Numbered from the stretch's first letter, positions 27,594 through 46,553 are shown. The stretch is DNA of 64,000 nt from a bacterium (GCA_027309555.1 DAIDCO010000001.1:13036-77035); one strand, 5' to 3'. Translations and numbers: made by a program. The notes: a model not told the origin generated them from the letters alone.

Positions 27594-27759
27594 CGTCAGG
27601 GAATCACTGTTACCCAAGTCAAACCGACCTCATAAGCGCACTCTCGGAGCTTACCTCGTGGACCACTAAGTTACCAACCCTTTCGGCGGGGCCCGGGGAA
27701 CCGGGTCCCGTTCTTTGTTTCATCTGCGGGATGGAACACACCCTCGGAGGACCGTGCCC

Positions 27760-29893: not shown

Positions 29894-30027
29894 TGCCGCT
29901 CTTTCCCAACTTGGAGGAGCTGGCCGCCCGCATGGAGGCCGTCCATGCTCAGGACGTCGAGCGGGAAGAGCGGAAGATCGCGTTGCTCCAGGCCATACTG
30001 GATGAACTGAAACGAGGGAACGAATGA
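29893..30027 (+). CDS. element ORF, 44-aa helical protein
   Basis: Below the ORF-track cutoff. Product is MPLFPNLEELAARMEAVHAQDVEREERKIALLQAILDELKRGNE. It has an ATGA overlap with the next ORF. Confidence 0.35.
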   Translation: MPLFPNLEELAARMEAVHAQDVEREERKIALLQAILDELKRGNE

Positions 30028-30479: not shown

Positions 30480-30809
30480 AGAGGCAGAGTCCAATGCCCT
30501 TTGAAACGTCGAACCGAGGAACTTTATACGAAGGTTCCTGTCATCCATCGAAGGTCCGGAGGTCTACACGGATGCGGCAAGAGTTTAGATTCGCTTCGTC
30601 TTGACAAAGATCGGAGCGGGGGCTCCGACCGAGCGTAGACCCTCGGTCGTCCCCTGCGCCCTTCTCGTTGAAGTTTCTCCCATCAGTGCCGGGGGGCGGC
30701 CTTCGGGCCGACCTACACCTGCCAACCCCGGCCGGGAGAGGGAGGCATGGATTAGAGAGCGATTTTCCACCTCGATACGCTAACAGATTCTTCGACAAGG
30801 GAGACCACT

Positions 30810-31694
30810 TTGACCTCGCAAGAGGAGTGGTGGTCCAAGAGAGCAAGAGAGTACACGCAGTCGAAGCGAGGAGCCAGCGACCGATGGAAGCGGACCACCT
30901 ACAACCTGCTACGAAACCTCGCAGTAGATGGAAGGAAGCCCGCGATCTTTACTCGGTCGTCCATCTCCCCACTTCCCCACGGCCCCTCGGAAGTCACCGA
31001 GGAGCAAGTGCTGGCCGTCAAGCGATTCGGAGTAGAGACCTACACGCCGCCGAGTCTCCGGGGGCTCCTATGGGGCTTCCGGGACTTCTTGGCGTGGGAT
31101 GGAAACAAGATCGCCAAGGACGATACGTTGTGGCTGTGTCCAACCGGGGACCCGATTCATCCTCGGTGGCTGTCGGCCCAGCACTTGGGCGACCTACTCC
31201 GCGCAGCGGTCGGGAGGGAACGCCCGGTCTGTGCTCTCCTCGGTACGTGCGGGCTTCGGAGTATCGAGGTATGGCGACTCCGATACCGGGATGTAGATAT
31301 GGACCTAGCCCACCCGACGCTCCGGGTTTGGGGGAAGGGCCGGTCCGGAGGGAAGTGGCGGACGGTCCCGCTTTCGAAGATCGCGTGGACCGAGCTCCTA
31401 CCGTTTGTCGAGGGGAAGAGACCCGAGGACCGCATACTACCGTGGGCGCTCGTCACGCTCCAATTGGACGTGAGGACCGCAGCACGGAGGGCGGGCCTGG
31501 TGGCTTCTACCCACGACCTACGGCGGTCGTTCGGCCGCGTGGCCTTCAAGGACGCGAAGGTGCCCCTGACGACCATACAGAAAATCTACGGGCACGCCAG
31601 CATCGACACGACCATCCGGTATCTGGGACTCAACCTCGACGACATGACGGATGGGATCGCCGCGTTCGACCGCGTTATGGCGGAGGTCGCGTAG
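30810..31694 (+). CDS. tyrosine recombinase / integrase
   Basis: Catalytic pattern GLRSIE (R), GKGRSGGKWRTVPL (K), HDLRRSF (H-x-x-R) and GHASIDTTIRYL (H...Y). TTG start. It reads toward attR. Confidence 0.9.
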   Translation: MTSQEEWWSKRAREYTQSKRGASDRWKRTTYNLLRNLAVDGRKPAIFTRSSISPLPHGPSEVTEEQVLAVKRFGVETYTPPSLRGLLWGFRDFLAWDGNKIAKDDTLWLCPTGDPIHPRWLSAQHLGDLLRAAVGRERPVCALLGTCGLRSIEVWRLRYRDVDMDLAHPTLRVWGKGRSGGKWRTVPLSKIAWTELLPFVEGKRPEDRILPWALVTLQLDVRTAARRAGLVASTHDLRRSFGRVAFKDAKVPLTTIQKIYGHASIDTTIRYLGLNLDDMTDGIAAFDRVMAEVA

Positions 31695-31755
31695 ATGGCT
31701 CGGGAACAGGGATTCTCCGGCGAGAACCGACATGCTGGTACATGTCGTAGGCCAT
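31675..31755 (-). pseudogene. orphaned 5' fragment of sufU (26 codons)
   Basis: Starts ATG-GCC-TAC-GAC-ATG-TAC-CAG (MAYDMYQ), then diverges into element DNA and stops. It lies ~35 nt downstream of a TATA-like box (31786-31797). Confidence 0.6.
31735..31749. repeat. attR core (CTGGTACATGTCGTA)
   Basis: Exact copy of the 15-mer at 27576-27590. It encodes YDMYQ of the orphaned sufU 5' fragment. Confidence 0.6.
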
Positions 31756-31860
31756 CGGAACCGCCTCGCATTCCACCACGGGCCTTCGATATAAATCGAA
31801 GCCGTTGCCGTGCGTCGACCGTCGCCCGCGGACCGCCCGAGCGCCTCTCACCCCGCTCAT

Positions 31861-31888
31861 CTTATAAACACCCCCGCGTGTGTAAATC
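31861..31888 (+). promoter_or_regulatory. putative sufD promoter: TATA-like box plus GTGTGTAAATC motif
   Basis: cttataaaca at 31861-31870 lies ~25 nt before the ATG at 31891, which implies a near-leaderless transcript. GTGTGTAAATC at 31878-31888 recurs at 38440-38450. Confidence 0.4.
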
Positions 31889-31890
31889 CA

Positions 31891-33285
31891 ATGGCCCTGA
31901 CGGCCCCCCGTTACTCGGAATGGCTTTCGGCGGAGCAGGTCCACGCCCTCTCGGGTGCGCTCGCCGACCCCGAGGTCTACCGGAAGGCCCGCGCCGAGTC
32001 GTTCGAGCGGTTCCGGGAGCTCCCGCTCGAGCCGAACCCGCTCTACCGGGGCTACGGCTACTTCGCGGGGGTCGACCTTACGGGCATCGAACCCGAGCTG
32101 CGGGGACCGCCGGTCGAGCTTCCTCCGCTGCTCGAAGGGGCCGTGCACTTGGTCCAGGACGTGTCGGGGACCCGGCTCGACCTGCCGCCGGCGCTCGCCG
32201 CCCAGGGGATCAAGGTCACCACCTTGCCCGAGCTCTGGCGGCGCGGGAACGGCGAGCTCCCGGCGTTCCTTCGCGGCGTCGAATCCATCCCGGACCGCCT
32301 CTCCGCGCTTGCGACGACGTTGCTGAACCGCGGGTACCGCCTCGAGATCCCCGACGGCTTTCGCGACCCGGTGCGGGTCCAGGAGCTCGCGATCCTCTCG
32401 CGACCCCACGAGGCCCTCTCCGTCCGGCGCTCCGTCCGGGCCGGGTCGGACGCCCAGCTGCTGATCACGGAGGAGACGTACTCGACCGCAGCGAGCTTCG
32501 AGGGCCAGCGGCTGTATGCGTCGACGACCGACCTCGACCTCGCCGACCGGGCGAAGGTCGTATTTCTAACGGTCCACGCGCCCGACCTGCGCACGGTCTC
32601 GGTCTACCGCCGGTCGGTCACGACGGGTACCGGGGCCCGGATCGCGTGGCTCTGGAACGGCCTCGGCGGATTCCGCACGAAGGTGCGCAACCAGACGATG
32701 CTCACCGGCCAGGGGTCGGCCTCGGACGATCTCCAGACCTTCTATGGGTCGAAGAACCAGTCCTACGACAGCTCGGTGGACGTCACGCACGTCGGGACCG
32801 ACACCCATGCGCAGTCGATCACGCGGGGCGTATTCACGGACGAAGCTCGGGGCATGAGCCGCGGGCTCGTGCGCATCGAAGCGAACGCGCGCAAGACGAT
32901 CGCCTACGTCTCCGAGCACGCGATGCTGCTGTCGCGCGGCGCGCGCTCGGACACGATCCCGATCCTCGAGATCCTCTGTCGGGACGTCAAGGCCACCCAC
33001 TCGACGTCGGTGGCGCCGGTCGACCCGGAGAAGGTCTTCTATCTCGAGTCCCGCGGCCTCGGCCGGGACGAAGCGATCCGAATGATCGGCGAAGGGTTCC
33101 TCGCCTACGTGCACGAACGCGCCCCGATCGCGGGCCTGCGGGAGATCCTGTACCCGACGTTGAGCCGCCGCTGGGAAGGCAAGGACGTTGTCTGGCGGGC
33201 CGGCGAGTATCCCCTGCTGCCGAGCCTGACGGTCTCGGGCACGGACGCCGCGCCCGAGTGGCGGTTCGACGCGAAGCTGCGCTAG
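31891..33285 (+). CDS. sufD: Fe-S cluster assembly protein SufD (SufB/SufD family)
   Basis: C-terminal SufBD beta-helix region (HxGTDTHAQS..., ...KATHSTSVAPVD..., FYLESRGL). ATG at 31891 (MALTAPRY). Confidence 0.9.
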   Translation: MALTAPRYSEWLSAEQVHALSGALADPEVYRKARAESFERFRELPLEPNPLYRGYGYFAGVDLTGIEPELRGPPVELPPLLEGAVHLVQDVSGTRLDLPPALAAQGIKVTTLPELWRRGNGELPAFLRGVESIPDRLSALATTLLNRGYRLEIPDGFRDPVRVQELAILSRPHEALSVRRSVRAGSDAQLLITEETYSTAASFEGQRLYASTTDLDLADRAKVVFLTVHAPDLRTVSVYRRSVTTGTGARIAWLWNGLGGFRTKVRNQTMLTGQGSASDDLQTFYGSKNQSYDSSVDVTHVGTDTHAQSITRGVFTDEARGMSRGLVRIEANARKTIAYVSEHAMLLSRGARSDTIPILEILCRDVKATHSTSVAPVDPEKVFYLESRGLGRDEAIRMIGEGFLAYVHERAPIAGLREILYPTLSRRWEGKDVVWRAGEYPLLPSLTVSGTDAAPEWRFDAKLR

Positions 33286-33676: not shown

Positions 33677-36181
33677 CTATCCGACCGCGCCGGCCATCTC
33701 GAGCTGGATCAGCCGGTTCAGCTCGAGGGCGTAGTCGACGGGAAGCTCCTTTGCGAACTCCGCAAGGAACCCCATCAGGATCAGGTGGATCGCGTCCGAC
33801 TCCGTGAGGCCGCGGCTCATCAGGTAGAAGATCTGCTCCTCCCCGATCTTGCCGACCACCGCCTCGTGGGTGATCGTCGCGTCCTCTTCGTGGATCTCGT
33901 TGTACGGATACGTGTCGGAGCGGCCGGATTCGTCCGGAAGGAGCGCATCGCAGCGCACCGCGGCCTTCACGCCGGTCGCGCCGGGCGCGACGTGGAGGAG
34001 CCCGCGATAGCTCGTTTGGCCGCCCCGGATCGCGATCGACTTCGCGACGATCTTGCTCGAGGTGTCCGGCGCGGAATGGACCGCCTTCGCGCCCGAGTCG
34101 ATGATCTGCCCCTGGCTCGCGAACGCGACCGAGAGGATATCGGCGCGCGCGCCGCGGCCCTTCAGGTAGACCGACGGGTACTTCATCGTGATCTTGGAGC
34201 CCATGTTCCCGTCGACCCATTCGACCAGCGCGCCCTCGTAGGCGACGGCGCGCTTCGTCACGAGGTTGTACACGTTCTTGGACCAGTTCTGGACCGTCGT
34301 ATACCGGACCTTGGAGAACGGCTCTCCGACCACCTCTACCACGGCCGCGTGGAGCGAGTCGGTGGAGTAGATCGGCGCCGTGCAGTTGTGCACCGAGAAT
34401 CCTTTCACGAGGTAGGTGTTGTTATCGCCCGCGACATGGAAGTTGTAGACGTTGCCGTGGTACGGGCTCCGCGAGATCTGCCGGATCGGGACCAGGAAGG
34501 CATCCCCCGCGCGGCGTACCGCCTCGGCGTGCTTTCCCACCTGGTGATAGACCGTGTACATTCGCCGGTGAGAGATCGTCCGCCCGTCCGGCATCGTCTC
34601 GTCGAACGGTTCCCGGACATTGATCGTCGCGAAGACGCCTTGCCGTGCCTGGAGCTCCTGGACCTGGAACGCCAGCTGGCGCGACACCGTCATGACGCGG
34701 TGCACGGTTCCACCGTTTCGGTCGTAGAAGTTGCCGTCACCGTTGTAGTAGGTCGCCAGGAGAATCCGCTGCTTTTCCGGCGGCAACTCCATCACGACCT
34801 TGCTCAGCTGCTTCTGCCCCGCGAGCTTCCCCGCGTGCTGTAGGCAGAACCCGTAGAGCTCCTTCGAGTATACCCCGACGGAGACAGCGTGCTTCTCCGG
34901 TTGCTGGGCCGCCCACGGGGTCTTCCCGGTGAGCTCTTGAATGGCGGCACTGAGCTCCGCGACGAACCGGGTCTCCTCGATGTGGAAGGTAAACGTCACA
35001 GCTTCGCACCCGTTGATCTTCTGTACGCATCCCTCCGAGAGGTAGTACCCCAGGAGCGTGAGCGCGGCGGTTCCGAAGCCGGGCTCGTCCCGCTCCGTTC
35101 GGTTGATGGGGTAGTGGACGAAGTCGCCGGGCTCGAGGTCGCCGGCCGGGATGAACTCCGGGGAGGCCTTCAGCAGCTTCTCCGGGTCCACGTCGGACCA
35201 CTGTCGGTGGGTCCGGTGCCCCGCGACCACCTTCCGGCGAGGAATGCAGTACACCGGGTGCTCTGGGGTCAATTCGAACGCATTCCCGACAGAGACCGGA
35301 GTGATGTGCACGAGCTCTCCATCGAACGGCCGGACCATCGTCTTCTCGACGGTCGTCTCGAGCCCGTCGCTGTTGAGCACGGGCTGGCCGGTCTCGATGG
35401 CCTCGATCGGGGTCAACTGGTCCCCGACCAACACCTCCTCCCCGAGAGGGAGGCACCCTTCGATGTAGTGCACCTTCGCGCCCTTATCGGCAATGATGAG
35501 CGTGCGCTCGAACTGGCCGACGTTCTTGGCGTTGATCCGGAAGTACGCCTGGAGCGGAATCCCGGCATCGACCCCGGGCGGAATGTAGACGAAACTCCCG
35601 CCGGACCAGACGGCGCTGTTGAGCGCGGAGAACTTGTTGTCGTTGTAGGGCACGATCCGACCGAAGTACTTGCGTACGATCTCGGGGTGCTCCTTCACGG
35701 CGGTGTCGGTGTCGCAGAAGAGGACGCCCTTCGCAGAGAGGTCCTCGCGGATCTTGTGGTAGACGGTCCCGCTGTCGTACTGGGCGCCCACCCCGCCGAA
35801 GTACTCTCGCTCTGCTTTCGGGATGCCGAGCTTTTCAAACGTATTCTTGATGTCGGCGGGGAGGTCCTCCCACTTGCGCTTCGTCTCGCCTTCCAGCATG
35901 GGGTTCGCGTAGTAGGTGTAGGAGTCGAAGTCGATCTCGGCGAGGCTCGGGCCCCAGTCCGGCATCGGACGCTCCACGAAATGGTCGTAGGCGCGCAGTC
36001 GGTACTCGAGCATCCAGGACGGCTCGTCCTTGAACTTCGAGATCTGCTCGACGACCGAGCGGCTAAGCCCCTTCGGGATCCGCAGGCGGTAGGTTTCCGG
36101 GTTCTTGAAGTCGTACCGGGTGTAATCGAGGGGCGTGATCTCGTTCGCCTGCGCCATGGTGACCTCGACCAATTCCATCAC
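33677..36181 (-). CDS. sufB: Fe-S cluster assembly protein SufB, interrupted by an intein
   Basis: The SufB sequence is continuous except for a 357-aa insertion inside the conserved YIEG|CTAP motif. The exteins total 477 aa. The start may be ATG 36178 or M9. Confidence 0.95.
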   Translation of the reverse strand: MMELVEVTMAQANEITPLDYTRYDFKNPETYRLRIPKGLSRSVVEQISKFKDEPSWMLEYRLRAYDHFVERPMPDWGPSLAEIDFDSYTYYANPMLEGETKRKWEDLPADIKNTFEKLGIPKAEREYFGGVGAQYDSGTVYHKIREDLSAKGVLFCDTDTAVKEHPEIVRKYFGRIVPYNDNKFSALNSAVWSGGSFVYIPPGVDAGIPLQAYFRINAKNVGQFERTLIIADKGAKVHYIEGCLPLGEEVLVGDQLTPIEAIETGQPVLNSDGLETTVEKTMVRPFDGELVHITPVSVGNAFELTPEHPVYCIPRRKVVAGHRTHRQWSDVDPEKLLKASPEFIPAGDLEPGDFVHYPINRTERDEPGFGTAALTLLGYYLSEGCVQKINGCEAVTFTFHIEETRFVAELSAAIQELTGKTPWAAQQPEKHAVSVGVYSKELYGFCLQHAGKLAGQKQLSKVVMELPPEKQRILLATYYNGDGNFYDRNGGTVHRVMTVSRQLAFQVQELQARQGVFATINVREPFDETMPDGRTISHRRMYTVYHQVGKHAEAVRRAGDAFLVPIRQISRSPYHGNVYNFHVAGDNNTYLVKGFSVHNCTAPIYSTDSLHAAVVEVVGEPFSKVRYTTVQNWSKNVYNLVTKRAVAYEGALVEWVDGNMGSKITMKYPSVYLKGRGARADILSVAFASQGQIIDSGAKAVHSAPDTSSKIVAKSIAIRGGQTSYRGLLHVAPGATGVKAAVRCDALLPDESGRSDTYPYNEIHEEDATITHEAVVGKIGEEQIFYLMSRGLTESDAIHLILMGFLAEFAKELPVDYALELNRLIQLEMAGAVG
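34385..35455 (-). mobile_element. SufB intein with LAGLIDADG homing-endonuclease domain
   Basis: Residues C243-N599. Starts CLPLGEEVLV and ends FSVHN, followed by the +1 Cys (CTAPIY). Internal LLGYYLSEG and YYNGDGNF resemble the two LAGLIDADG blocks. Confidence 0.9.
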
Positions 36182-36322: not shown

Positions 36323-37615
36323 TCACGCCCGCGCGGGCGGAATCGGCTCGGGCCGGGCAAAGAGGCGCACCGCCTCCGCGAGGCCCTCGAACAGCTCTAC
36401 GAGCTCCGCCTCGGTGTTGTAGAGGTAGGGGCTCGCCCGAGTGAGGGCCGGGACCCCGAGGCGGTCCATGAGGAGCTGCGCGCAATGGTGGCCGGCGCGC
36501 ACGCAAACGCCGCGGGCATCGAGGAGGCTTGCCACGTCGTGCGGATGGACGCCTCGCAAACGGAAGGAGACCACCGCCTCGCGCTGCCGGGGGTCCCTCG
36601 GACCGAAGATCGTGACCGCGTCGCCGAGCCGCTCATCGGCGAGTCGGAGCGCCGTCGCCTGGAGCCGATGCTCGTGCGCCGCGAGCTCCTCCCAGCCGAT
36701 CCCCTCGAGGTAGGAGAGGGCCGCGGCGAGGCCCACCGCTCCGGCGGCGTTCGGCGTGCCGGCCTCGAACTTCGCGGGCGACTCGCGATAGCTCACGCGG
36801 TCCCGGTGGACCTCGCGGATCATCTCCCCTCCGCCCATCCCCGGCGGGAGCGATTCGAGCAGGTCGCCCCGGCCCCACAGGGCACCGATTCCCATCGGAC
36901 CGAGCGTCTTGTGGCCCGAGAAGGCCAGAAAGTCGGCCCCGAGCTTCCCGACGTCGATCGGGAGATGGGGCGCGGACTGGGCCGCGTCCACGACGACGAG
37001 GGCCCCGACCGAGTGCGCACGGTCGGCGATCTCCCGCACGGGGTTCGTAGTGCCGAGGACGTTCGAGACATGGGTCAGCGTGACGACCTTCGTGCGGCGG
37101 TCGAGGTAGCGGTCGAGCTCGTCGAGGCGCAGCCGACCCTCTTCGTCGACGTCGACGAACTCGAGTTCGATGCCGCCGTATTCCCGCAGGAAATGCCACG
37201 GAACGATGTTCGAATGGTGCTCCATGACCGTCGTCACGACGCGGTCGCCCTTCTTCAGGGTCGAGCGCCCGAGGCTCGTCGCGAGAAGATTGATCGCCTC
37301 GGTCGTGCCACGAAGGAAGACGACCTCGGAGGCCGCGCGCGCTCTCAAGAAGCGAGCGACGCGTTCGCGCGCTCCCTCGAAGGCGTCGGTCGCCTCGACG
37401 CTGAGACCGTAGACGCCCCGGTGGACGTTCGCGTTCGTCCGCTCGTAGAACTCCGCTTCGGCGGCGATCACCGAACGCGGCTTCTGGCTCGTCGCCGCGG
37501 AATCGAGATACACGAGCGGCCGCCCGTTCGATGTGCGGGAGAGGAGCGGGAAGTCCGCCCGGATCTTCGCGACGTCCATCGTACTCCCTCTCGGAGGGGA
37601 AGCGTCCGAGAGCAC
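36323..37615 (-). CDS. sufS: cysteine desulfurase SufS
   Basis: Class V aminotransferase fold. Has FSGHKTLGPMG (PLP lysine) and the RAGHHCAQ active-site loop. Confidence 0.95.
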   Translation of the reverse strand: MLSDASPPRGSTMDVAKIRADFPLLSRTSNGRPLVYLDSAATSQKPRSVIAAEAEFYERTNANVHRGVYGLSVEATDAFEGARERVARFLRARAASEVVFLRGTTEAINLLATSLGRSTLKKGDRVVTTVMEHHSNIVPWHFLREYGGIELEFVDVDEEGRLRLDELDRYLDRRTKVVTLTHVSNVLGTTNPVREIADRAHSVGALVVVDAAQSAPHLPIDVGKLGADFLAFSGHKTLGPMGIGALWGRGDLLESLPPGMGGGEMIREVHRDRVSYRESPAKFEAGTPNAAGAVGLAAALSYLEGIGWEELAAHEHRLQATALRLADERLGDAVTIFGPRDPRQREAVVSFRLRGVHPHDVASLLDARGVCVRAGHHCAQLLMDRLGVPALTRASPYLYNTEAELVELFEGLAEAVRLFARPEPIPPARA

Positions 37616-38392
37616 TTAGTTTGTGGCCTGGGGGACAACGGGGCGCACGAAGTCGTAGCCTTTCGCCTCGAGCTCCTCGGCGAGCTCGCGCCCTCCCGAG
37701 AGCTGGATGATCCCGTCCACCATCACGTGCACCCGGTCCGGTTTGAGGTACTTCAGGATCCGCTGGTAGTGCGTGATGACGAGGATCCCCGCGTCGGGCC
37801 GGTGGAGCTTCGCGACGGTCTCCCCGACGGCGCGGACCGCATCGATGTCGAGACCCGAGTCCGGCTCGTCGAGGATCGAGAAGAGCGGATGCAGGGTCGC
37901 CATCTGGAGGACCTCGACGCGCTTCTTCTCCCCTCCCGAGAACCCCTCGTTCAGCGAGCGTTTCAGGAGCGACCCGTCCATTTCGAGGTATCCGAGATGC
38001 GCCTGGAGCTCGCGGTCGAACTCGGCCGTGTCGGCCGTTTGCGCCGTGTGCCGCTGCATGTAGGCGGTCCAGAGGAATTTCGAGAGCGAGAGCCCCGAGA
38101 CCTCCTGAGGATACTGGAATCCGAGGAAGAGACCGGCCTTCGAGCGCTGGTCGACGCTGAGCTTGAAGAGGTCCTGGCCATCGAGGAGCGCTCGACCTTG
38201 GGTGACCTTGTACTTCGGGTGGCCCATGAGCGCGTACGCGAGCGTGCTCTTCCCGGAACCGTTCGGACCCATCAGTGCGGTGAGCTCGCCGCTATGGAGC
38301 GTCAACGTGACCCCTCGCAGGATCTCCTTTCCGGCGACCTCCGCGTGAAGGTTTTCGATGACGAGCGTGTGGGGCGTGGTCAGCGCGGTCAT
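37616..38392 (-). CDS. sufC: Fe-S cluster assembly ATPase SufC
   Basis: Walker A GPNGSGKST, signature FSGGEKKR and Walker B ILDEPDSGLD. It abuts sufS. Confidence 0.97.
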   Translation of the reverse strand: MTALTTPHTLVIENLHAEVAGKEILRGVTLTLHSGELTALMGPNGSGKSTLAYALMGHPKYKVTQGRALLDGQDLFKLSVDQRSKAGLFLGFQYPQEVSGLSLSKFLWTAYMQRHTAQTADTAEFDRELQAHLGYLEMDGSLLKRSLNEGFSGGEKKRVEVLQMATLHPLFSILDEPDSGLDIDAVRAVGETVAKLHRPDAGILVITHYQRILKYLKPDRVHVMVDGIIQLSGGRELAEELEAKGYDFVRPVVPQATN

Positions 38393-38420: not shown

Positions 38421-38450
38421 GTTATTTAAGCATGGCGCGGTGTGTAAATC
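38421..38450. promoter_or_regulatory. bidirectional TATA-like box plus GTGTGTAAATC motif between sufC and the regulator gene
   Basis: gttatttaag (38421-38430) lies ~30 nt from the sufC ATG on the minus strand and ~45 nt from the regulator ATG on the plus strand. GTGTGTAAATC at 38440-38450 is identical to 31878-31888. Confidence 0.4.
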
Positions 38451-38472
38451 GATCCGGGGAACGGAGGAGTCG

Positions 38473-39207
38473 ATGACGATGGTAGCTGCCGCGAGCGAGC
38501 TTCTCGAAGGAACGCGGGGGCGGATTCTGGAAGAGCTCGCGAATGCGCCGCGCACCGCTCGGGACCTTTCGAAGATGCTCGGCATCCAGGAGAGTGCCGC
38601 CCGCGGTCACTTGGACCGGATGCAGGACAAGGGACTCGTTGTCGCCTCCTTCCGCCGGGAAGGCGTCGGCCGACCGCGGAAGCGCTACGTCCTGACCGGC
38701 CAGGGGCAGGACCTGTTCCCGAAGAAGTACGACCTCATCCTCGACACCGTGGTCGACGAACTCCTCGCTCGCGAGGGGGAGGGGTACGTCAGTGCCCTCT
38801 TTGCCGAAGCGGCGCGCCGAATGGCGGGAACGGTCGCCCGGGAGATCCCGAAGGGCGGGCCTCCGGCGGAGCGGATCCGGAACCTCGTGACCGCGCTCAA
38901 TCGACTCGGCTTCCGCTGCAGCGCCGAGGAGCGGCCGGACGGGACCTTGCGGATCGTCCGCACGAACTGCGTCTTCCGTCACAGTGCGCTCTCGCACCCG
39001 TTCCTTCTCTGCGACGTTTTCGACAAACACCTCACCGAGGCCCTCTTGGGCCAGGTGGGGGTCGACCTCCAGGACTCCATCGGTCGGGGCGGCGTCCAGT
39101 GCACCCACTTGGTTCAGCTCCTCGGGGCGCGACCGGTCGTCCGTCGAGGTTCCGAGCCACGACGCCCGGTCGGCCTCCCGTCGCGCGACGGGGCGGGCGC
39201 CGAGTAG
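38473..39207 (+). CDS. ArsR/SufR-like winged-helix transcriptional regulator
   Basis: HTH region TARDLSKMLGIQESAARGHLDRMQDKGLV. The C-terminal domain has spaced cysteines (C-x16-C-x13-C...C). It is divergent from sufCSB. ATG at 38473 is preceded by GGAGGAG. Confidence 0.7.
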   Translation: MTMVAAASELLEGTRGRILEELANAPRTARDLSKMLGIQESAARGHLDRMQDKGLVVASFRREGVGRPRKRYVLTGQGQDLFPKKYDLILDTVVDELLAREGEGYVSALFAEAARRMAGTVAREIPKGGPPAERIRNLVTALNRLGFRCSAEERPDGTLRIVRTNCVFRHSALSHPFLLCDVFDKHLTEALLGQVGVDLQDSIGRGGVQCTHLVQLLGARPVVRRGSEPRRPVGLPSRDGAGAE

Positions 39208-39269: not shown

Positions 39270-40241
39270 ATGGGCGCAGCCCCGTCGCGCGTGGCCGGAG
39301 CGATGGCGCCCGTTGGCCCGACCGCGGTCGCCCCGGCGCTCCGGCTCGACGACCCGCTCCTGCGCGCGATCGGCGGGACTCCGCTCCTCCCGCTCCCTCG
39401 CATCGTCGCCGCTGCGGGGGGAGGGTTCGAGATCCTGGCGAAGGCCGAGTTCCTCAATCCCTCGGGGTCGGTGAAGGACCGAGCCGCCCTTGGGATCGTA
39501 CGTCGCGCCGTAGAAGAGGGGTCGCTCGATGGCCGCCGTACGCTCGTCGACGCATCGAGCGGCAACACCGCGGTCGCCTACGCGATGCTCGGCGCCCGGC
39601 TCGGGTTCCGGGTCGAGCTCGTGCTGCCCCGGAACGCGAACCCCGAGCGCGTGGGACGGATCCGGGCTTACGGGGCCCGGGTCGTGTTCACGGACCCGCT
39701 CGAGGGTACCGATGGCGCGCAACGAGAGGCGCTACGTCGCGCGACCGAGGATCCGGCGCGGTACTTCCATCCGGACCAGTACAACAACCGGTCGAACCCC
39801 GACGCCCACTACGCCACGACGGGGCCCGAGATCTGGCGGCAGTCCCGCGGCCGGCTGACCCACTTCGTCGCCGGGGTCGGTACTGGCGGCACGATCTCGG
39901 GGGCCGGTCGGTTCCTGAAGGAGCAGCAGCGCTCGCTTGAGGTGGTCGGGGTCGAGCCGTCGGGGCCGATGCACGGGCTCGAAGGGCTGAAGCACCTTCC
40001 GACCGCCCTCCGGCCCTCCACGTACGACGGTAGGGTCGTCGATCGGACCGTCCGCGTGGCAACCGAAGACGCGGCCGAGATGAGGTCCCGCCTTGCCGAA
40101 GAGGAAGGGCTCGTGGTCGGCCTGTCGGCCGCAGCCGCAGTGCTCGTTTCGGTCGAGGTGGGGCGTCGGGCGCCCGGCTCGGTGGTCGCGACCGTGCTCC
40201 CCGACGCCGGCCACGCCGTGGACCCCCTCGGGGGCGTGTAA
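39270..40241 (+). CDS. cysM: cysteine synthase (CysM-like, PLP-dependent)
   Basis: Has PSGSVKDRAA (PLP lysine) and SSGNTAVAY. ATG at 39270. The longer ORF-track start would overlap the regulator. Confidence 0.85.
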   Translation: MGAAPSRVAGAMAPVGPTAVAPALRLDDPLLRAIGGTPLLPLPRIVAAAGGGFEILAKAEFLNPSGSVKDRAALGIVRRAVEEGSLDGRRTLVDASSGNTAVAYAMLGARLGFRVELVLPRNANPERVGRIRAYGARVVFTDPLEGTDGAQREALRRATEDPARYFHPDQYNNRSNPDAHYATTGPEIWRQSRGRLTHFVAGVGTGGTISGAGRFLKEQQRSLEVVGVEPSGPMHGLEGLKHLPTALRPSTYDGRVVDRTVRVATEDAAEMRSRLAEEEGLVVGLSAAAAVLVSVEVGRRAPGSVVATVLPDAGHAVDPLGGV

Positions 40242-40242
40242 G

Positions 40243-40728
40243 ATGCGGTCGGTGCGCCTGGCCCGAACGCACCTCGAGGCGATGGCGGTCCACGCCCGGG
40301 CCACGTACCCGGACGAATGCTGCGGCTTTCTCGTGGCGAACCCGGACCCCGGCCCGCCCGAAGCTCCGCGCACGATTACGGCGGTCGAGCCGGCGGCGAA
40401 CGAGTTCGAGGGGGTCCGGCGCCGTCGGTTCCTCCTCCGCCCCGAAGAGCTCCGGGCCGCCGAGTCACGGCTCGAGAGGACCGGGCGCATCGTGGCCGGG
40501 TTCTATCACTCGCACCCCGATCATCCGGCCTTGCCCTCGACGTTCGACCGGGACCATGCCTGGCCCTGGTATACCTACCTCGTCGTCGGCGTCACTCCCT
40601 CGGGGGTGAGCGAGATTCGCGCGTTCGAGCTCGATCCCGACCGGGGGGAGTTCGTCGAGGCGGGCCTAGCGGTCGCCCCGGTTCACGAAGCGCCCGCGAT
40701 GCGGGGGAGTCGGGAAGCGAGAGCCTAA
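40243..40728 (+). CDS. JAMM/MPN+ metalloprotease (Mec-like)
   Basis: Has ECCGFL (Glu) and HSHPDHPALPSTFD (H-x-H-x7-S-x2-D). The ATG lies 2 nt after the cysM stop. Confidence 0.85.
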   Translation: MRSVRLARTHLEAMAVHARATYPDECCGFLVANPDPGPPEAPRTITAVEPAANEFEGVRRRRFLLRPEELRAAESRLERTGRIVAGFYHSHPDHPALPSTFDRDHAWPWYTYLVVGVTPSGVSEIRAFELDPDRGEFVEAGLAVAPVHEAPAMRGSREARA

Positions 40729-40754
40729 GAGGATTGTAGGAGGGATACGGGTAG

Positions 40755-42236
40755 ATGGCAAAGGTCACGGTCCGGGTGCCGACCCCGCTACGCCCACTCG
40801 CCGGGGGCCTTGCTGAGGTCGTGGTGGACGGTGCGACGGTCGGGGGCGTCGTGGAAGAGCTCGCGCGCGCCCACGCCGGGCTCCGGCGCCATCTCTTCTC
40901 GCCCGAAGGCAAGCTGCGCAGTTTTGTCACAATCTACCTCAACGACGAGGACGTTCGCTACCTTCAACGGGACGGGACCCCGGTCGCGGAGGGGGACGTG
41001 CTCTCGATCGTCCCCGCGATCGCGGGCGGCGCCCCGACCGCGCTCTCCTCCGCGTCCCGCGACCGCCGCGAAGCGATCCCTTCGGCGGCGGACGCGTTCT
41101 CCCGGGACGACCTGCGCCGCTACAGCCGCCATCTCCTGCTCCCCGAGGTCGGAGTCGCGGGCCAGAAGAAGCTGCGACGGGCGAAGGTCCTCCTCGTCGG
41201 CGCCGGGGGGCTGGGGGCTCCGACGGCCCTCTACCTGGCCGCCGCGGGGGTCGGCGAGATCGGCCTCGTCGACTTCGACCGGGTCGACCTCTCGAATCTG
41301 CAGCGCCAGGTTCTCTACACGACCCGCGACGTCGGCCGGCCAAAGCTCGAGGCGGCGAAGGAGCGTCTCGAGGCGCTGAACCCGGGGGTCCGGGTCATCC
41401 CGCACGGGGAGCGCCTCACGGCCGACAACGCGCTCGGAGTCCTCGCGCCGTACGACATCATCGTCGACGGTACCGACAACTTCCCGACCCGCTACCTCGT
41501 CAACGACGCGTCGGTGCTGCTCGGGAAACCGAACGTCTACGGCTCGATCTACCGGTTCGAGGGCCAGGTGAGCGTCTTCGACGCGCAGCGGGGCCCGTGC
41601 TACCGATGCTTGTATCCCGAGCCGCCCCCACCGGACCTCGTTCCGTCGTGCGCGGAGGCGGGCGTTCTCGGCGTGCTGCCGGGGCTCATCGGGACCCTCC
41701 AGGCGACCGAGACGGTGAAGCTCCTCCTCGGTCAGGGGGAGCCCCTCATCGGCCGGTTGCTGCTGTTCGACGCGCTCGCGCTCAAGTTCCGCGAGCTCCG
41801 GCTCCGCAAGAACCCCCACTGCGTTCTGTGCTCGCCCCAAGCGACCCAGAAAGGGCTCATCGACTATCCGGCGTTCTGCGGCGTGGCGGCCCCCGGCGAC
41901 GAGGAGGTCGGCGGGGCCGTTCCGTCGATCGAACCGGAGGCGCTCGCGGCGGCGCTCGCCTCGACCGACCCTCCCGTGCTGATCGACGTGCGTGAACCGA
42001 TGGAATGGGCGATCGCCCATCTGCCGAGCGCGCGGCTGATCCCGGGAGCGGAACTTCCGGAGCGCGTAGACGAGTTCACTCGCGCGCGCGAGCTGGTCCT
42101 CTACTGCCGCAACGGCGGACGTTCCGCCCATGCGACGCGTCTCCTCCTCGACCTCGGCTTCTCGAACGTACGCAACCTCCGGGGGGGCATCCTCGCCTGG
42201 TCCGAGCGGGTGGACCCGAACCTGCCCCAGTACTAG
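40755..42236 (+). CDS. fusion protein: CysO/MoaD-like beta-grasp sulfur carrier (ends AIAGG at residue 92), ThiF/MoeB E1 and rhodanese (MoeZ-like)
   Basis: Residues 1-92 resemble CysO along their whole length (VTVRVPTPLRPLAGG...FVTIYLNDEDVRY...GDVLSIVPAIAGG). No stop follows the GG codons (41025-41030). Then come VLLVGAGGLGAP, CYRC/CVLC, PSCAEAGVLG and the rhodanese active site LYCRNGGRS. Confidence 0.9.
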   Translation: MAKVTVRVPTPLRPLAGGLAEVVVDGATVGGVVEELARAHAGLRRHLFSPEGKLRSFVTIYLNDEDVRYLQRDGTPVAEGDVLSIVPAIAGGAPTALSSASRDRREAIPSAADAFSRDDLRRYSRHLLLPEVGVAGQKKLRRAKVLLVGAGGLGAPTALYLAAAGVGEIGLVDFDRVDLSNLQRQVLYTTRDVGRPKLEAAKERLEALNPGVRVIPHGERLTADNALGVLAPYDIIVDGTDNFPTRYLVNDASVLLGKPNVYGSIYRFEGQVSVFDAQRGPCYRCLYPEPPPPDLVPSCAEAGVLGVLPGLIGTLQATETVKLLLGQGEPLIGRLLLFDALALKFRELRLRKNPHCVLCSPQATQKGLIDYPAFCGVAAPGDEEVGGAVPSIEPEALAAALASTDPPVLIDVREPMEWAIAHLPSARLIPGAELPERVDEFTRARELVLYCRNGGRSAHATRLLLDLGFSNVRNLRGGILAWSERVDPNLPQY

Positions 42237-42271
42237 CCGGACGGCCTTCGGCCCCCCCGAGGTCCCGCGGT

Positions 42272-42874
42272 CTAGCTCGTTTCGACCGGGGGGCTTGCGA
42301 GCGGGTCTCCGACGTCCACGGCCAACCGGCCGCTGTAGGACCGGACCCGGCGGGAGAGCTCTCGCGCGAAGCGGTCCGGCTGGCGCGGGGAGAGATACAG
42401 CGGATACTCTCCGGCGGTGACGAGGAGCCCGCGCGCGGCGTCGGTGTAGATCGAGTCGAACCGCCCGAGCACCGGGCTCCACATCCGCCCTCGCCATCCC
42501 CAGGAACCGAAGAATCCGCCGGTCGCCGCAAGGTCCCTCAGCGACGCGTATTCGATGCTTCGGACCTGGTCGAGGCGGACCTTGACGCCGCCGAGGATCC
42601 GCCGCGCTCGGAGGTACCGCTCGTCGATGCGGTAGTTCGTGGAGAGGTAGCGCGCGAGCGCGACGAGGAGGATCCCGGAGATCACATAGGAGCCCCACCA
42701 AGAGAGGACCGCCGAGCCCCGACCGAGGATCAAGACGACGATCAGAAGCAGGACGACGTACGTGCCGACGATCGTGTAGGAGATCGTCCCCCACGCATGG
42801 TATCGCCCGAGCGCGTCGAGCGCCCCGCGGTCGGAGGAGGCCGTTTCGAAAGACCGGTCGATCCGAGGGGACAA
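42272..42874 (-). CDS. hypothetical membrane protein (2 TM plus bacterial PH-like domain)
   Basis: The two TM helices and the RIDERYLRARRILGGVKVRLDQVRSIE region resemble the bPH/YdbS-type. The nearest usable starts are TTG 42874 or TTG 42946. The upstream part of the 339-aa ORF is ABCE1-derived pseudogene sequence. Confidence 0.45.
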   Translation of the reverse strand: MSPRIDRSFETASSDRGALDALGRYHAWGTISYTIVGTYVVLLLIVVLILGRGSAVLSWWGSYVISGILLVALARYLSTNYRIDERYLRARRILGGVKVRLDQVRSIEYASLRDLAATGGFFGSWGWRGRMWSPVLGRFDSIYTDAARGLLVTAGEYPLYLSPRQPDRFARELSRRVRSYSGRLAVDVGDPLASPPVETS

Positions 42875-42989
42875 CGGAATGGGGTTCGCCTCCGTCCACG
42901 CGGCCGGTATTGCGGTCCCGCGGCGGTCGTACGCCGCGCCCTGCAAATAGATTACCGTCGGCCCGGATCCGTAGATCCGGCGGCGGGTT

Positions 42990-43378
42990 CGGGTCCGTAG
43001 CAGGGCGGACGAGCACCGACTCGAAGAGGGCGGTGAGCGGCGTCGAGTTCCCGGGCCCATTGGGTCCGAGGAGGCCTGCGATTCCCCGGGGAGTCGGGAC
43101 CGGCAGGAGATAGAGTCGGACGCCGCGGTAGCCGTACCGGTGCACAATCCCGACTCGTCCGCCTCGGGCGTGTTGTGGATATGGATCGCATCGAACGGAC
43201 ACGTGACCGCCCAGACGTCTCGTCCTATGCAGAGAGTCTCCGAGCTGAGGGGGTCGCCGAGCGGCCCTTCGCCGATGCACTCCCGGCCCATGCGCGCCGT
43301 CGGACAGCGGACCCGGCGCTCCCATTGGCACCACTTCGGAAGGCGGCGGTCGAGCGCAGGATCTCATCCCACGCCAAC
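42990..43378 (-). pseudogene. decayed copy of the ABCE1 N-terminal region (FeS domain to P-loop)
   Basis: [47 protein letters not shown] versus genuine [47 protein letters not shown]: 33 of 47 identical by hand, with two cluster Cys lost. After a frameshift, IVHRYGYRGVRLYLLPVPTPRGIAGLLGPNGPGNST matches IVHRYGYNGFRLYRLPLPPPQGITGLLGPNGTGKST. Weaker similarity may continue to ~42800. Confidence 0.7.
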
Positions 43379-43384
43379 TAGAGA

Positions 43385-43720
43385 GAGAACCCCAAGTAAT
43401 TGCGCATGGTCGTTGGAGGGCCTCGTTTCCCCTCCGCCAGGCTTCGAAGGTGTGTTCCACTGCCGTGCCCACATCCTCGAGCTTGGGAAGGTGCCGATTC
43501 TGCGGACACCTCCGCAAGGTGAACTTCCAGACCCGTTCAGTCGGAATCAACCGCGGGCTTCCGGCGGGGAGGAACGAGTGCTCGAACCGGGGACTCGCCC
43601 CGCGTCGCCGCTCCTCGTGAAGGCGGGCGTGGGGGTACTGCGCGCTGTCGCCAATCACCACTCCTCGGCGCAGCACGAGGTGCTCTCCCGGTAGCGCGGA
43701 TGGAGGAACTGAGCGCGGCC
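43385..43720 (-). pseudogene. IS630/Tc1-mariner-family transposase C-terminal remnant
   Basis: VVIGDSAQYPHARLHEE...FEHSFLPAGSPRLIPTERVWKFTLRRCPQNRHLPKLEDVGTAVEHTFEAW matches the DDE_3 pattern (D..H......LPPYSP.LNPIE.VW...K......F..L..L...V...). No N-terminal half and no terminal repeats were seen. Confidence 0.65.
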
Positions 43721-43789
43721 GACCTTGTTGAGCGCTCCCTCGTCTCGCCGAGAAGTCATCTTCCCACCGCGAAGTCGGACGGCTCCCCA

Positions 43790-44065
43790 TTACTCGACCG
43801 ACTTGTCGGTCACGTGCACGAGGTCGGTTGGGTTTCCGAGGGGGAGCGGCGACGGGAGGAGCCCACGCGCGGCAGGACTCGGCGTCGGCCCGAACTCCCC
43901 GGGAATCACCCCCTCGGCAAGGGTCTGCGTGATGGCACCGCTCGGTGCGTGGGTCTCCGGCGCGACACTCAGAACCGGAGACGCGGCGACGACCGAGCGG
44001 GCGCCGAGGAACCGCTCGGTGAGCCCGTGCGCGTTCGCGACCCATTGGAGTCCGACGGCAATCAT
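43790..44065 (-). pseudogene. decayed fragment of an FtsX-type ABC permease (paralog of 53900-55147)
   Basis: ...ASPVLSVAPETHAPSGAITQTLAEGVIPGEFGPTPSPAARGLLPSPLPLGNPTDLVH versus genuine ...ASPVLSVDVDAYTTSGALSPVLAEGVIPAQFGPTLSPAERGLFPSPLPLGDPTDLRH. About 47 of 76 positions are identical by hand alignment. Confidence 0.7.
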
Positions 44066-44561
44066 CCCGCAGCGCCGGGCCGAAACGGATGGACGGGCTC
44101 CTCTTCGCCCCCGCCGCCCCGTCGCTGGGAGACCGTCGGCCGTGCCAGGTCCTCACTTCTTCCGGTGGGACCACGGGGTCTCCCCACCCCTCGTAACCCA
44201 TATCTACCGAACCCGGTTCTCCACCCGGAAGCGAACGCCGATCGAGCTCACCGCAAGCCCCGTAGCGCAGAGTCGGACCGAGGGAGGTCCACGCCCGCCC
44301 GGGCCTTGGCTCACCCGTGGGCCGAGGTATGGCAAGCCGGTCGCCCCGGCAGCACGCAACGGTGAAGGGAGGGCGGGCGACCGCTTGCAGGGGGAGGGAT
44401 TTATCCCTGCGCCAGCCCCCAAGCTGAGCCGGTCCGACCCGGGCACGTCGCCCGAGCTTCCCGAGCCCCATTCCACCGAAGGCGACATCGAGGGGAGACG
44501 GCGGCGATGGAGCCGTTCCGCCCGCTTCGTCCTCCGTCGCGCGGTCGGCGATCGGTTCCGG

Positions 44562-46553
44562 TTGTTGCTGATCCCCCCGTTCCTCGCCTACGTGGTGTTC
44601 TGGTCGTATGTGGACCTGGCCCGGCTCTACGCCCTCCAGGCAACCGTCTATGACCTCGGCTACAACATGCAGTTGCTCTGGTTCTCCCTCCCGACGACGG
44701 GCTCCCCCGGGTTCGGTTACTTGATCAAGATCGCTTACAATCCGGTTTGGGTCCTCTTCTCTCCGCTCTCGGTCGGTGCGCAGTTCCCGGTCCTTCTCGT
44801 CGTCCAAGCGATCGCCCTCGCGTTTCCTGCCTTCCTCGTCTACGAGATCTCGAAGCGCGAGCTGGGCCTGCCGATCCCTTCTTACTTAATCGCGCTCGGC
44901 TACCTGCTCTACCCCCTGCTCGCCGGGCCAAGTTGGTTCGACTTCCACTTCCAGGCGTTCTTCGTCCTGTTCTTCTTGGGCGGCTACTACTTCCTCCAGC
45001 GGGAGCGCCGCTGGGCTGCAGGAGTGCTGCTGATCCTGGGGGGGGAGGCGACGTATCCGTATGGCCTCCTGATCGTCCTGTTCGCGACAGTCACCGTCTT
45101 TGCCGAGCTGTATCGGCTTCAGTCATTCCGGGCCCTCGCGCGCTGGACGGAGTTCCGGTTCTTCCTCACGCTCGGTCTCGTGGCCGCCCTGCTTCTCGAA
45201 GTGCACCAGCTCATCGCCCCTGCGGTCGGCGTGCTAGGCGCCGCGCACGCTGCGGCTCAGCCGGTTGCTCCTAACCTCGGGAACGTTCTCTTCACGGTGG
45301 TACTGATCCTGGCCCCCCTCGGTTTCCTGCCGCTTCTCGCCCCCCGCTGGCTGATCCTTCTGGCCCCGTTCGCCTACCTACTCCTCTTCTCCGGTTCGCC
45401 GCTCTTCGCCTATCCACTCCTCCTCCAGGACCAGTACTCGGCCATGATCATCCCCTTCGTGTTCCTGGGGTTCATCGCTGGGGTCGCGCGACTGGCCCGA
45501 AGAACGGAGACGGCTCGCGTGGCTTCCACTCGGGAGCCGGCGCACCGGACTCGCCGGAGTCTCCCATGGGCCGCTCGCGAGCGCGCGCTCGCCACCGTGG
45601 TCCCGACGATCGCAATTGCGGTCCTCCTGGGGCTGGCCTACCAACCGTACGGCCCCTGGAATCCCACGACCGGGGCCAACTTTGGTCTCGGCCCCTTGCT
45701 CGAGTACAACCGAACCTCCTACGACGACCTGGCCGCGCTCGCGGGGCTGATCCCGGCCTCTTCCCCGTACGTCCTCTTCCAGAACAATATGCCGGAGGTC
45801 CTGCCCCGACCCGCGGCGTACGAAGGGGAACCGCTCACGACCTACCTCGACTGGGGAACCCCGACACGGGCGGAAGCGGATACCGGCCATTTCTCGCTCG
45901 TCCTGCCCTCGGGGAACCGCGTCGAAGCGACCATTGACTTTGCGCTCTCGGACCCGTACACCCCCCTCTGGTTCACCTACCATGGCCCGAGCCCCAACAC
46001 CTCCATGTACGACTTCATCCGCGTCCTCTACGAGAGCGGGGCGTACGGCATTCTAGGGGAGGCGGGCGGCATGGTGCTGCTCGAGCGGAACTACACCGGT
46101 GCCCCCCGGTTCTTCGTCCCCTTCGAGTCCACGTTCTCCTCGGCGAGCCTCCGGTCGACCGCGGCCTGTTCGCAGACGCCCTCGGCGATCGTCTGTTCGA
46201 ACGTCTCGCGGGTCTTCGCCGGCTGGTACGGCCCCTCCCTCTACCTCTCCCCCGGCACGTACGAGGTGCGCTTCTCGATGATGACGACCGACACCTCCGT
46301 TCAGAACCAGTTGTGGCTGCTGGCGACAGCGAACAGCCAATCGACCGTCTTCCCCGGGGGGGCCCTCCGGGTCACTGGGGCTGACTTCGGGCAGCCGAAC
46401 GTCTGGAAGACGTTCACGCTCAGCTTCACGGTGAACGACACCTACGCGAACGTCGAGTTCCCGGCCGACTCGATCGATTGGAATGGAAGCGTCTCTCTGA
46501 GCGGGGTCACCCTGGAGCAACTGGCCCCGGGCGCCGACCGCCCGCCAGCCTGA
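44562..46553 (+). CDS. DUF2079-family polytopic membrane protein (GT-C-like) with C-terminal beta-sandwich domain
   Basis: YDLGYNMQLLW near TM1, multiple TM helices and a long extracytoplasmic C-terminal part. There is no in-frame ATG or GTG near the first TM. TTG 44562 is the nearest start, so the start is uncertain. The palindromic AT-box AGGGATTTATCCCT at 44395-44408 is the only TATA-like element upstream. Confidence 0.7.
   Translation: MLLIPPFLAYVVFWSYVDLARLYALQATVYDLGYNMQLLWFSLPTTGSPGFGYLIKIAYNPVWVLFSPLSVGAQFPVLLVVQAIALAFPAFLVYEISKRELGLPIPSYLIALGYLLYPLLAGPSWFDFHFQAFFVLFFLGGYYFLQRERRWAAGVLLILGGEATYPYGLLIVLFATVTVFAELYRLQSFRALARWTEFRFFLTLGLVAALLLEVHQLIAPAVGVLGAAHAAAQPVAPNLGNVLFTVVLILAPLGFLPLLAPRWLILLAPFAYLLLFSGSPLFAYPLLLQDQYSAMIIPFVFLGFIAGVARLARRTETARVASTREPAHRTRRSLPWAARERALATVVPTIAIAVLLGLAYQPYGPWNPTTGANFGLGPLLEYNRTSYDDLAALAGLIPASSPYVLFQNNMPEVLPRPAAYEGEPLTTYLDWGTPTRAEADTGHFSLVLPSGNRVEATIDFALSDPYTPLWFTYHGPSPNTSMYDFIRVLYESGAYGILGEAGGMVLLERNYTGAPRFFVPFESTFSSASLRSTAACSQTPSAIVCSNVSRVFAGWYGPSLYLSPGTYEVRFSMMTTDTSVQNQLWLLATANSQSTVFPGGALRVTGADFGQPNVWKTFTLSFTVNDTYANVEFPADSIDWNGSVSLSGVTLEQLAPGADRPPA

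Follow-up and report, generated by a model that had tools for sequence, protein, structure and literature searches.

In the CysO/CysM/Mec+/MoeZR pathway of Mycobacterium tuberculosis, CysM reportedly condenses thiocarboxylated CysO (CysO-COSH) with O-phosphoserine (O'Leary 2008) and Mec is reported to hydrolyze CysO-Cys (Burns et al. 2005), and E1/MoeB-MoaD chemistry proceeds by adenylation of the free α-carboxylate on the last glycine of the carrier. MoeZR sulfurates CysO and serves both MoaD and CysO in mycobacteria (PMC3227635). An operon of the same protein families, type 4c, was described by Iyer, Burroughs & Aravind in 2006 and combines a ThiS/MoaD carrier, an E1-rhodanese, a JAB protease and a cysteine synthase, with separate carrier and E1 genes and in bacteria only; the same survey also contains a different ubiquitin-like (Ubl)-ThiF fusion whose Ubl was judged not to be the carrier (PMC1779556). 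Makarova & Koonin (2010) listed Ubl-E1-TBP in Thaumarchaeota. Padalko et al. (2024) catalogued MoaD-MoeB and MoaD-MoeB-rhodanese fusions (clusters 356.1-356.3), the three-domain form in 14 + 25 archaeal assemblies (unclassified Euryarchaeota, Poseidoniales), and suggested a transfer from Acidobacteria (PMC11237513). The locus considered here, positions 39270-42236 of a 64,000-nt window (the whole stretch analyzed, GCA_027309555.1 DAIDCO010000001.1:13036-77035, counted from its first letter), encodes a CysM-like enzyme, a JAMM protease and a fusion of a CysO-like carrier to a MoeZ-type E1-rhodanese. The fusion is real, but as an architectural variant of a known system it had already been listed. 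We consider it fairly likely that the locus is a Thermoplasmata copy of the bacterial type 4c operon in which the fused polypeptide is a pro-protein, its carrier being released by the JAMM enzyme after Gly92 to serve a cysteine route.

The three open reading frames (ORFs) are co-directional, in the order CysM-like, JAMM, fusion, with intergenic gaps of 2 and 26 nt. The third ATG (40755) has a GGAGG-like motif upstream of it. As a co-directional four-component cluster, 39270-42236 belongs to type 4c. Its features are the following:

39270-40241, + strand: CysM-like pyridoxal phosphate (PLP)-dependent cysteine synthase of fold type II (PALP profile, SVKDR motif; start codon uncertain)
40243-40728, + strand: JAMM/MPN+ zinc metalloprotease, Mec-like (Prok-JAB profile; Glu and HSHPDHPALPSTFD)
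40755-42236, + strand: CysO::MoeZ-type fusion of carrier, linker, E1 and rhodanese in a single 493-codon ORF (Pfam ThiS, ThiF and Rhodanese)
40755-41030, + strand: β-grasp sulfur-carrier domain, residues 1-92, CysO-like, ending IVPAIAGG (ThiS profile, CysO alignment)
41025-41030, + strand: codons of Gly91-Gly92, invariant in 120/120 homologues; predicted scissile bond Gly92/Ala93, between 41030 and 41031
41031-41096, + strand: hypervariable Ala/Pro/Ser-rich linker, residues 93-114 (column entropy; predicted local distance difference test, pLDDT, of the AlphaFold2 (AF2) model)
41097-41882, + strand: ThiF/MoeB-type E1 adenylation domain, residues 115-376 (ThiF profile; P-loop, two CxxC zinc pairs, crossover-loop Cys)
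41913-42233, + strand: C-terminal rhodanese domain, residues 387-493 (Rhodanese profile; active-site loop CRNGGRS)

Gene content is identical to that of type 4c operons, and the gene order is identical to that of loci in Acidobacteriota, Chloroflexia, Cyanobacteriota and Bacteroidota; unlike the operons described in 2006, the carrier and the E1 share one gene and the host is archaeal. As in M. tuberculosis, the same four protein families are present, the carrier can be aligned with CysO over its full length, the E1 ends in a rhodanese domain as MoeZR does, and JAMM and CysM-like genes stand beside the carrier. In contrast, the mycobacterial CysO terminates in Gly-Gly, with moeZ as an unlinked gene, whereas here Gly-Gly is internal and the carrier is fused to the E1. 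The archaeal fusions catalogued in PMC11237513 share the three-domain order, the provenance from uncultured Euryarchaeota and the proposed Acidobacteria origin, but in such surveys they are filed under molybdopterin synthesis, and neither a connection to CysM or JAMM nor a mechanism of maturation is given.

The Gly-Gly codons are followed by GCC and the frame stays open through to 42236. The exact 493-aa product is found on 10 contigs from independent assemblies, two of which, the Logan assemblies of SRR9320199 and SRR9320196, show 0 mismatches over the whole 2967-nt operon. The same ThiS-ThiF-Rhodanese architecture occurs in 120/120 best homologous clusters (70-100% identity, lengths 483-504), and GC content at third codon positions (GC3) is 0.89 along the fusion ORF and 0.90 within the linker. 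That an assembly or sequencing artefact merged two genes, a general possibility in a 68% GC metagenome assembly, is refuted by the 10 identical contigs and the 120 fused clusters, and in view of the even GC3 as well we give it next to no chance. No in-frame ATG, GTG or TTG occurs between codons 93 and 253 of the fusion ORF, so the E1 cannot be made alone from this gene; internal initiation of a separate E1 was ruled out on this ground.

A preliminary description, made from the sequence alone, had placed three tightly packed ORFs at these coordinates on the + strand, listed their motifs (SVKDR, PDECCG Glu and HSHPDHPALPSTFD, GAGGLG, CYRC/CVLC, PSCAE, CRNGGRS), and reported an uninterrupted frame from the Gly-Gly codons into GCC. 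All of this was borne out, down to the two gaps, and the hidden stop or frameshift that it proposed looking for after Gly-Gly is absent from the 10 contigs, the two Logan assemblies among them. Its four module identities (PLP synthase, JAMM, carrier, E1-rhodanese) pass profile searches, and a β-grasp domain in residues 1-92, together with the CysO alignment drawn there by eye, is recovered with the scores given below. The host had been called an archaeon, which agrees with the archaeal RNase P RNA in the window (Rfam RF00373, 11915-12220, − strand, 197 bits, full length, the sole Rfam match in the window); the window is archaeal by this marker, and the closest named homologues are Thermoplasmata metagenome-assembled genomes.

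The carrier is CysO-like, not MoaD/SAMP-like, as judged from profile and structure-database matches. Pfam ThiS covers fusion residues 6-92 (8e-13, 49.2 bits vs a cutoff of 22.5), and M. tuberculosis CysO (3dwg_C) aligns with E=1.1e-19, query residues 3-92 on chain residues 2-93, placing Gly-Gly over the terminal Gly-Gly. A. orientalis CysO (4n6e_B) follows at 3e-17, MoaD/SAMP1 PDB chains range from 1e-5 to 0.08, and the NCBIfam SAMP1 model gives 46.4 bits, below its cutoff of 60. Gly91-Gly92 is not at a free C-terminus of the translated carrier but internal to the 493-residue chain, and it is invariant in all 120 homologues. The residue after it (P1') is Ala, Ser or Thr in most of them (Ala in 59%), and P2' is Pro in 85%. 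The linker that follows has a mean column entropy of 2.72 bits, against 0.5-0.9 in the three domains, and the distance from GG to RYSRH varies from 19 to 33 residues across the same 120 sequences. An AF2 model built from a 44-sequence alignment contains three confident domains, with pLDDT of 63-91 in the carrier β-grasp and 25-40 at residues 88-129, and the carrier tail and linker are accordingly predicted by the model to be flexible and exposed; with a predicted template modeling score (pTM) of 0.56, its inter-domain geometry is unreliable and does not decide on cis docking. The linker had been put at about 35 residues; the variable part is shorter, about 22 residues to F115, where the first conserved E1 residues lie, and about 30 to the start of the Pfam ThiF match.

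Pfam ThiF (7e-85, residues 123-356) and Rhodanese (3.1e-19, residues 395-484) cover the remainder of the fusion. The sole NCBIfam name above its cutoff is MoeB (NF006444, 482.6 bits, cutoff 449), MoeZ (NF005902) scoring 469.6 bits against a cutoff of 647, so that by profile this part is MoeB/MoeZ-like and not a curated MoeZ equivalog. The E1 motifs GAGGLG149, CYRC282, CVLC356 and PSCAE297, as well as rhodanese Cys451, Arg456 and Ser457 in the loop CRNGGRS, are invariant in archaeal and bacterial fusions. The JAMM protein matches Prok-JAB at 3.4e-20 over 40243-40725 (72.5 bits vs a cutoff of 25) and carries a perfect HxHx7Sx2D motif, with the Glu in PDECCG and HSHPDHPALPSTFD at residue 89. The desampylase model NF041370 gives 68.7 bits, below its equivalog cutoff of 130, and the best PDB match is 2kcq_A, an uncharacterized Mov34/MPN protein (1.9e-22). 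PALP matches 39270-40238 at 2.6e-68, with the PLP lysine motif SVKDR at residue 67. The ORF assigned to CysM at 39270-40241 is present, but its start is uncertain, GTG 39099, ATG 39270 and ATG 39303 being candidates and CysM homology beginning at about residue 30 of the 39270 start.

Relatives were surveyed in one genome per GTDB species with an alignment of the carrier only, a query chosen against bias toward fused genes, and the figures given here describe the best 80 of more than 600 matching loci. These are mostly from Acidobacteriota, with some from Chloroflexia, Cyanobacteriota, Bacteroidota, Clostridia and Nitrospirota and two from Thermoplasmata. The carrier is fused in frame to an E1-rhodanese in 31/80 and separate in 49/80 (the unfused loci lie among those numbered L004-L083). 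The order CysM-like, JAMM, carrier, E1-rhodanese is kept in Acidobacteriota, Chloroflexia, Cyanobacteriota, Bacteroidota and Thermoplasmata, and was found in 30/30 fused and in most unfused relatives. In 45 of the 47 unfused loci that have a downstream E1-rhodanese, its homology begins 22-293 nt past the Gly-Gly codons. Gly-Gly is the terminus in 0/49 unfused carriers, all of which bear tails of 1-29 residues beyond it. Within 700 nt upstream, 30/30 fused vs 24/43 unfused loci have a JAMM gene (Fisher p=5.7e-6, in a test that ignores shared ancestry), and some short-tailed unfused relatives have no JAMM gene within 5 kb. Fused bacterial loci have a CysM-like neighbor in 30/30 cases and Thermoplasmata loci in seven of nine; the JAMM gene adjoins the fusion in all loci of both sets.

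On a neighbor-joining tree of 85 E1 domains there are at least 14 switches between fused and unfused states, against a mean of 28.9 and a minimum of 20 for shuffled states. The main Thermoplasmata clade is monophyletic and all fused, and a second lineage (L081) falls elsewhere on the tree. At 65-71%, the identity of the E1 to that of Acidobacteriota accords with the bacterial origin suggested in the literature, and the Thermoplasmata operon was probably acquired from Acidobacteriota-like bacteria. When residues 1-130 were run with HMMER against 1.84 billion representatives, the carrier-GG-linker-RYSRHL junction was recovered in many divergent bacterial-looking representatives, although the library holds many truncated or frameshifted metagenomic fragments and its counts are qualitative only. 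The fused arrangement had been put forward as novel, which overstated the case, since the operon type dates from 2006, the fusions were catalogued in 2024 and nearly two fifths (31/80) of the nearest species-level relatives are fused; the database survey suggested at the time returned the architecture in each of the 120 clusters.

Other arrangements after Gly-Gly were seen in the same library, namely a permuted carrier-rhodanese-E1 (P0194, 486 aa), carrier-rhodanese fragments, tandem di-carriers and short Cys-rich tails (library examples P0194, P0203, P0218; P0123, P0140, P0183). Cys-rich tails also occur on several unfused carriers of the survey (L083, CARRCICR; L079, SSPRLLVCCCC; L045, ...CCPACCR).

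The observed architecture, conservation and comparative associations lead us to infer a cleavage, the identity of its protease, an amino-acid substrate and cysteine as product in the following scheme. The 493-aa product would be a pro-protein, in which the co-transcribed JAMM enzyme would hydrolyze Gly92-Ala93 to yield a CysO-like carrier of 92 residues, its Gly-Gly carboxylate now free, and a MoeZ-like enzyme of 401 residues; the predicted cleavage peptides are a carrier C-terminus ...DVLSIVPAIAGG and a neo-N-terminus APTALSSASR. The two parts would then act in trans, as in M. tuberculosis, with the E1 domain adenylating Gly92 and the rhodanese persulfide turning the adenylate into a thiocarboxylate. 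The CysM-like enzyme would add the thiocarboxylate to an aminoacrylate formed from O-phosphoserine or O-acetylserine, and an S-to-N acyl shift would give carrier-Gly-Gly-Cys, from which the same JAMM enzyme would release free cysteine by hydrolyzing the Gly92-Cys bond. That one JAMM enzyme performs both cuts is proposed on the basis of its adjacency to the fusion in 30/30 fused loci. Since both steps would be one reaction (carrier-GG cut from whatever follows), any C-terminal appendage should be a legitimate substrate, which would explain the masked Gly-Gly, the co-occurrence of JAMM with fusions and the repeated gain and loss of the fusion; the latter might come about, for example, by a stop codon gained or lost in the short spacer. 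The 0/49 count further suggests that maturation by JAMM has been overlooked as a general step, one that extends beyond the fused forms.

The preliminary description had left two options, a JAMM cut after Gly92 or a carrier acting in cis while tethered. The cut is favored by the invariant Gly-Gly next to a hypervariable linker, by the JAMM association (30/30 vs 24/43), by the lack of a second carrier nearby and by the lack of an internal E1 start. The tethered carrier cannot yield a thiocarboxylate, because E1 adenylation needs the free α-carboxylate of the last glycine and Gly92 has none in the fusion. A zymogen-like extension of the cleavage scheme, in which the tethered carrier occupies or blocks its own E1 until a regulated JAMM cut frees the carrier and at once activates the E1, the two in a strict 1:1 ratio, has in our view only a slim chance of being correct; if it were, one protease would gate both the entry (maturation) and the exit (cysteine release) of a ubiquitin-like sulfur cycle, and ubiquitin-precursor processing would have a prokaryotic counterpart wired into metabolism.

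Several points weigh against release by JAMM for cysteine synthesis. Apart from the limited depth of the survey and the disregard of ancestry in the adjacency test, these concern mainly the CysM-like enzyme, which scores below the curated cysM cutoffs (TIGR01138, 289.4 bits vs 394.2; NF008735, 255.9 vs 413) and has as best PDB matches the Salmonella and E. coli CysM proteins (220 bits, 2jc3, and 213 bits), ahead of M. tuberculosis CysM (3dwg_A, 154 bits). Given the sub-cutoff score and the greater nearness to enterobacterial CysM, a sulfide/thiosulfate user, it could by sequence be an ordinary sulfhydrylase. Its use of O-phosphoserine is a guess by analogy, assumed from M. tuberculosis; the residues discriminating O-phosphoserine from O-acetylserine are common to the mycobacterial and enterobacterial CysM. 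At one Thermoplasmata locus (L087, regulator-JAB-fusion) there is no PALP gene, and at another (L001) an 81-residue CysM C-terminus remnant at 9263-9508, 40% identical to window CysM residues 243-314 (E=4.5e-9), lies upstream of an intact JAB and fusion. The module therefore has, or can have, a role without an adjacent CysM, or can serve another PLP enzyme. JAB and fusion, present in 9/9 Thermoplasmata loci, are the constant core, and CysM, present in 7/9, is frequent but dispensable at the locus; the earlier statement that one operon holds the whole route stands for the window and those seven loci but fails for L087 and L001. Finally, we found in the literature no experimental work on any carrier-E1 fusion, in agreement with what the preliminary description had said.

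The absence of CysM from L087 and L001, both with intact JAB and fusion, would also fit a general sulfur-carrier activation (for molybdopterin, tRNA thiolation or another purpose), with a MoaD-type fused domain and CysM as an optional passenger. MoeB is the only NCBIfam name above cutoff, the fusion is filed as MoaD-MoeBR under molybdenum cofactor biosynthesis (PMC11237513), and the mycobacterial MoeZR serves MoaD as well as CysO (PMC3227635). However, the carrier matches CysO at 1e-19 and MoaD/SAMP1 at 1e-5 or worse, a CysM-like gene adjoins every fused bacterial locus counted and most Thermoplasmata loci, and no molybdopterin synthase genes lie in the window, so we regard this explanation as unlikely. 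Cleavage might also never occur, the N-terminal β-grasp being a docking or regulatory module of the E1 and the real carrier being encoded elsewhere in the genome, as suggested by the non-carrier Ubl-ThiF fusion of the Campylobacter type, which co-occurs with a free ThiS (Iyer et al., PMC1779556); the low pTM and lack of confident inter-domain geometry are compatible with cis docking. Against this, the fused domain is homologous to CysO over its full length and its Gly-Gly is invariant, the same domain is a free-standing operon carrier gene in close relatives, and JAMM is adjacent in 30/30 fused loci. The Campylobacter-type logic of a free second carrier nearby was rejected, as a CysO-family hidden Markov model, which could miss distant ThiS/MoaD proteins, detected no further CysO-like carrier in either the 64-kb window or the 85 loci examined, and on these grounds we hold a permanently attached carrier to be very unlikely. 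The cut after Gly-Gly could instead be made by another protease or an E1-assisted reaction, leaving to JAMM the release of cysteine, as for Mec; M. tuberculosis CysO indeed ends at Gly-Gly (3dwg_C, 93 residues), so that Mec is needed only for product release, and the short-tailed relatives lacking a JAMM gene within 5 kb point the same way. Such a division of labor appears quite improbable, considering that JAMM adjoins every fused locus surveyed, that the two reactions are chemically identical, and that processing of linear ThiS/MoaD-type fusions has been shown for no class other than JAMM enzymes: HvJAMM1, PfJAMM1 and DRJAMM (on MoaD-MoaE) cut linear Ubl fusions and expose the terminal Gly largely whatever follows (PMC8832034).

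JAMM-dependent release of the carrier would resemble several described processing events. In thioquinolobactin synthesis, QbsD trims QbsE-GG-CF and in Wolinella methionine synthesis HcyD trims HcyS-GG-A, in both cases by an operon-encoded JAMM enzyme before E1 activation. These masked carriers likewise have residues after Gly-Gly, comparable to the tails of all 49 unfused relatives, but the mask there is one or two residues and here a 401-residue enzyme. MoaD-MoaE fusions (D. radiodurans DR2607/DRJAMM, M. tuberculosis MoaX, H. volcanii SAMP1-MoaE/HvJAMM1) also join a carrier through its Gly-Gly to a pathway partner and are inactive until JAMM exposes the terminal glycine; there the partner is the sulfur acceptor MoaE, whereas here it is the activating E1 and the protease gene is in the same operon. 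Ubiquitin precursors (polyubiquitin, ubiquitin-ribosomal protein) are β-grasp fusions freed by a deubiquitinase cut after Gly-Gly, and Uba4/MOCS3 has the same E1-rhodanese architecture. To our knowledge, no fusion of ubiquitin to its own E1 exists, and in eukaryotes processing is mostly by cysteine proteases.

The present analysis adds to the catalogued fusions the CysO assignment, the operon context, the finding that all 49 unfused relatives have a masked terminus, the association with JAMM, and how labile the fusion is. If the predicted cleavage is true, a Ubl would be translated fused to its own E1 and freed by a deubiquitinase-type JAMM enzyme that later frees the product, a compact prokaryotic parallel to ubiquitin-precursor processing. 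A set of archaeal 'MoeB' or 'MoaD-MoeBR' annotations can be re-labelled as probable CysO-type cysteine/sulfur-transfer modules from bacteria, with consequences for how the metabolism of uncultured Thermoplasmata is reconstructed. In practical terms the value is modest, the parts and chemistry being known and the fusion common in databases.

Directly upstream of the operon, and divergent from sufC, lies one further gene:

38440-39207, + strand: winged-helix ArsR/MarR-like regulator gene (Pfam HTH_5 9.7e-8, MarR_2 2.4e-7)

It occupies the same position in L003 and L084-L089, and by location and family its product is a probable operon regulator. In the window, L003, L086, L088 and L089, opposite-strand sufS-sufC is followed by the winged-helix regulator, PALP, JAB and the fusion; L084 and L085, which are shorter contigs carrying the operon of the window itself, hold regulator-PALP-JAB-fusion, and L004 and L081 hold PALP-JAB-fusion. 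Neither serine acetyltransferase, sulfate-assimilation nor molybdopterin-synthase genes were found in the 64-kb window, nor did a tRNA scan of it find tRNA genes.

A Suf/NifU iron-sulfur cluster flanks the operon (SufS, SufC, SufB, a SufD-like protein at 31810-33285 and NifU_N at 27204-27617), extending over 36323-38392 (− strand) and 27204-33285, with synteny kept in the main Thermoplasmata clade. A functional link is plausible, either as cysteine supply to SufS or with SufS as sulfur donor to the rhodanese; the adjacency of SufS is suggestive of the latter, which would make cysteine synthesis circular. SufB (33677-36181, − strand, 834 aa) is interrupted by an intein with a LAGLIDADG homing-endonuclease domain (LAGLIDADG_3, residues 469-535) that splits SUFBD_core, and is uninterrupted, at about 470 aa, in L003 and L087.

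Antisense to the fusion and beyond, a 1339-codon open frame (40788-44807, − strand) does not pass the coding filter on GC3/GC2; rather than a gene, it is most likely an artefact of high GC content. A 398-aa protein encoded at 9927-11123 (+ strand) has both a YbaK-type aminoacyl-tRNA editing domain (tRNA_edit, 3.9e-27) and a domain of the HAD hydrolase type. Directly downstream of the operon, 42272-43291 (− strand) encodes a bPH_5 (bacterial-PH-domain) membrane protein, and together with an ABCE1/RLI homologue at 51412-53190 (− strand) this gene is syntenic in L003, L087 and L089.

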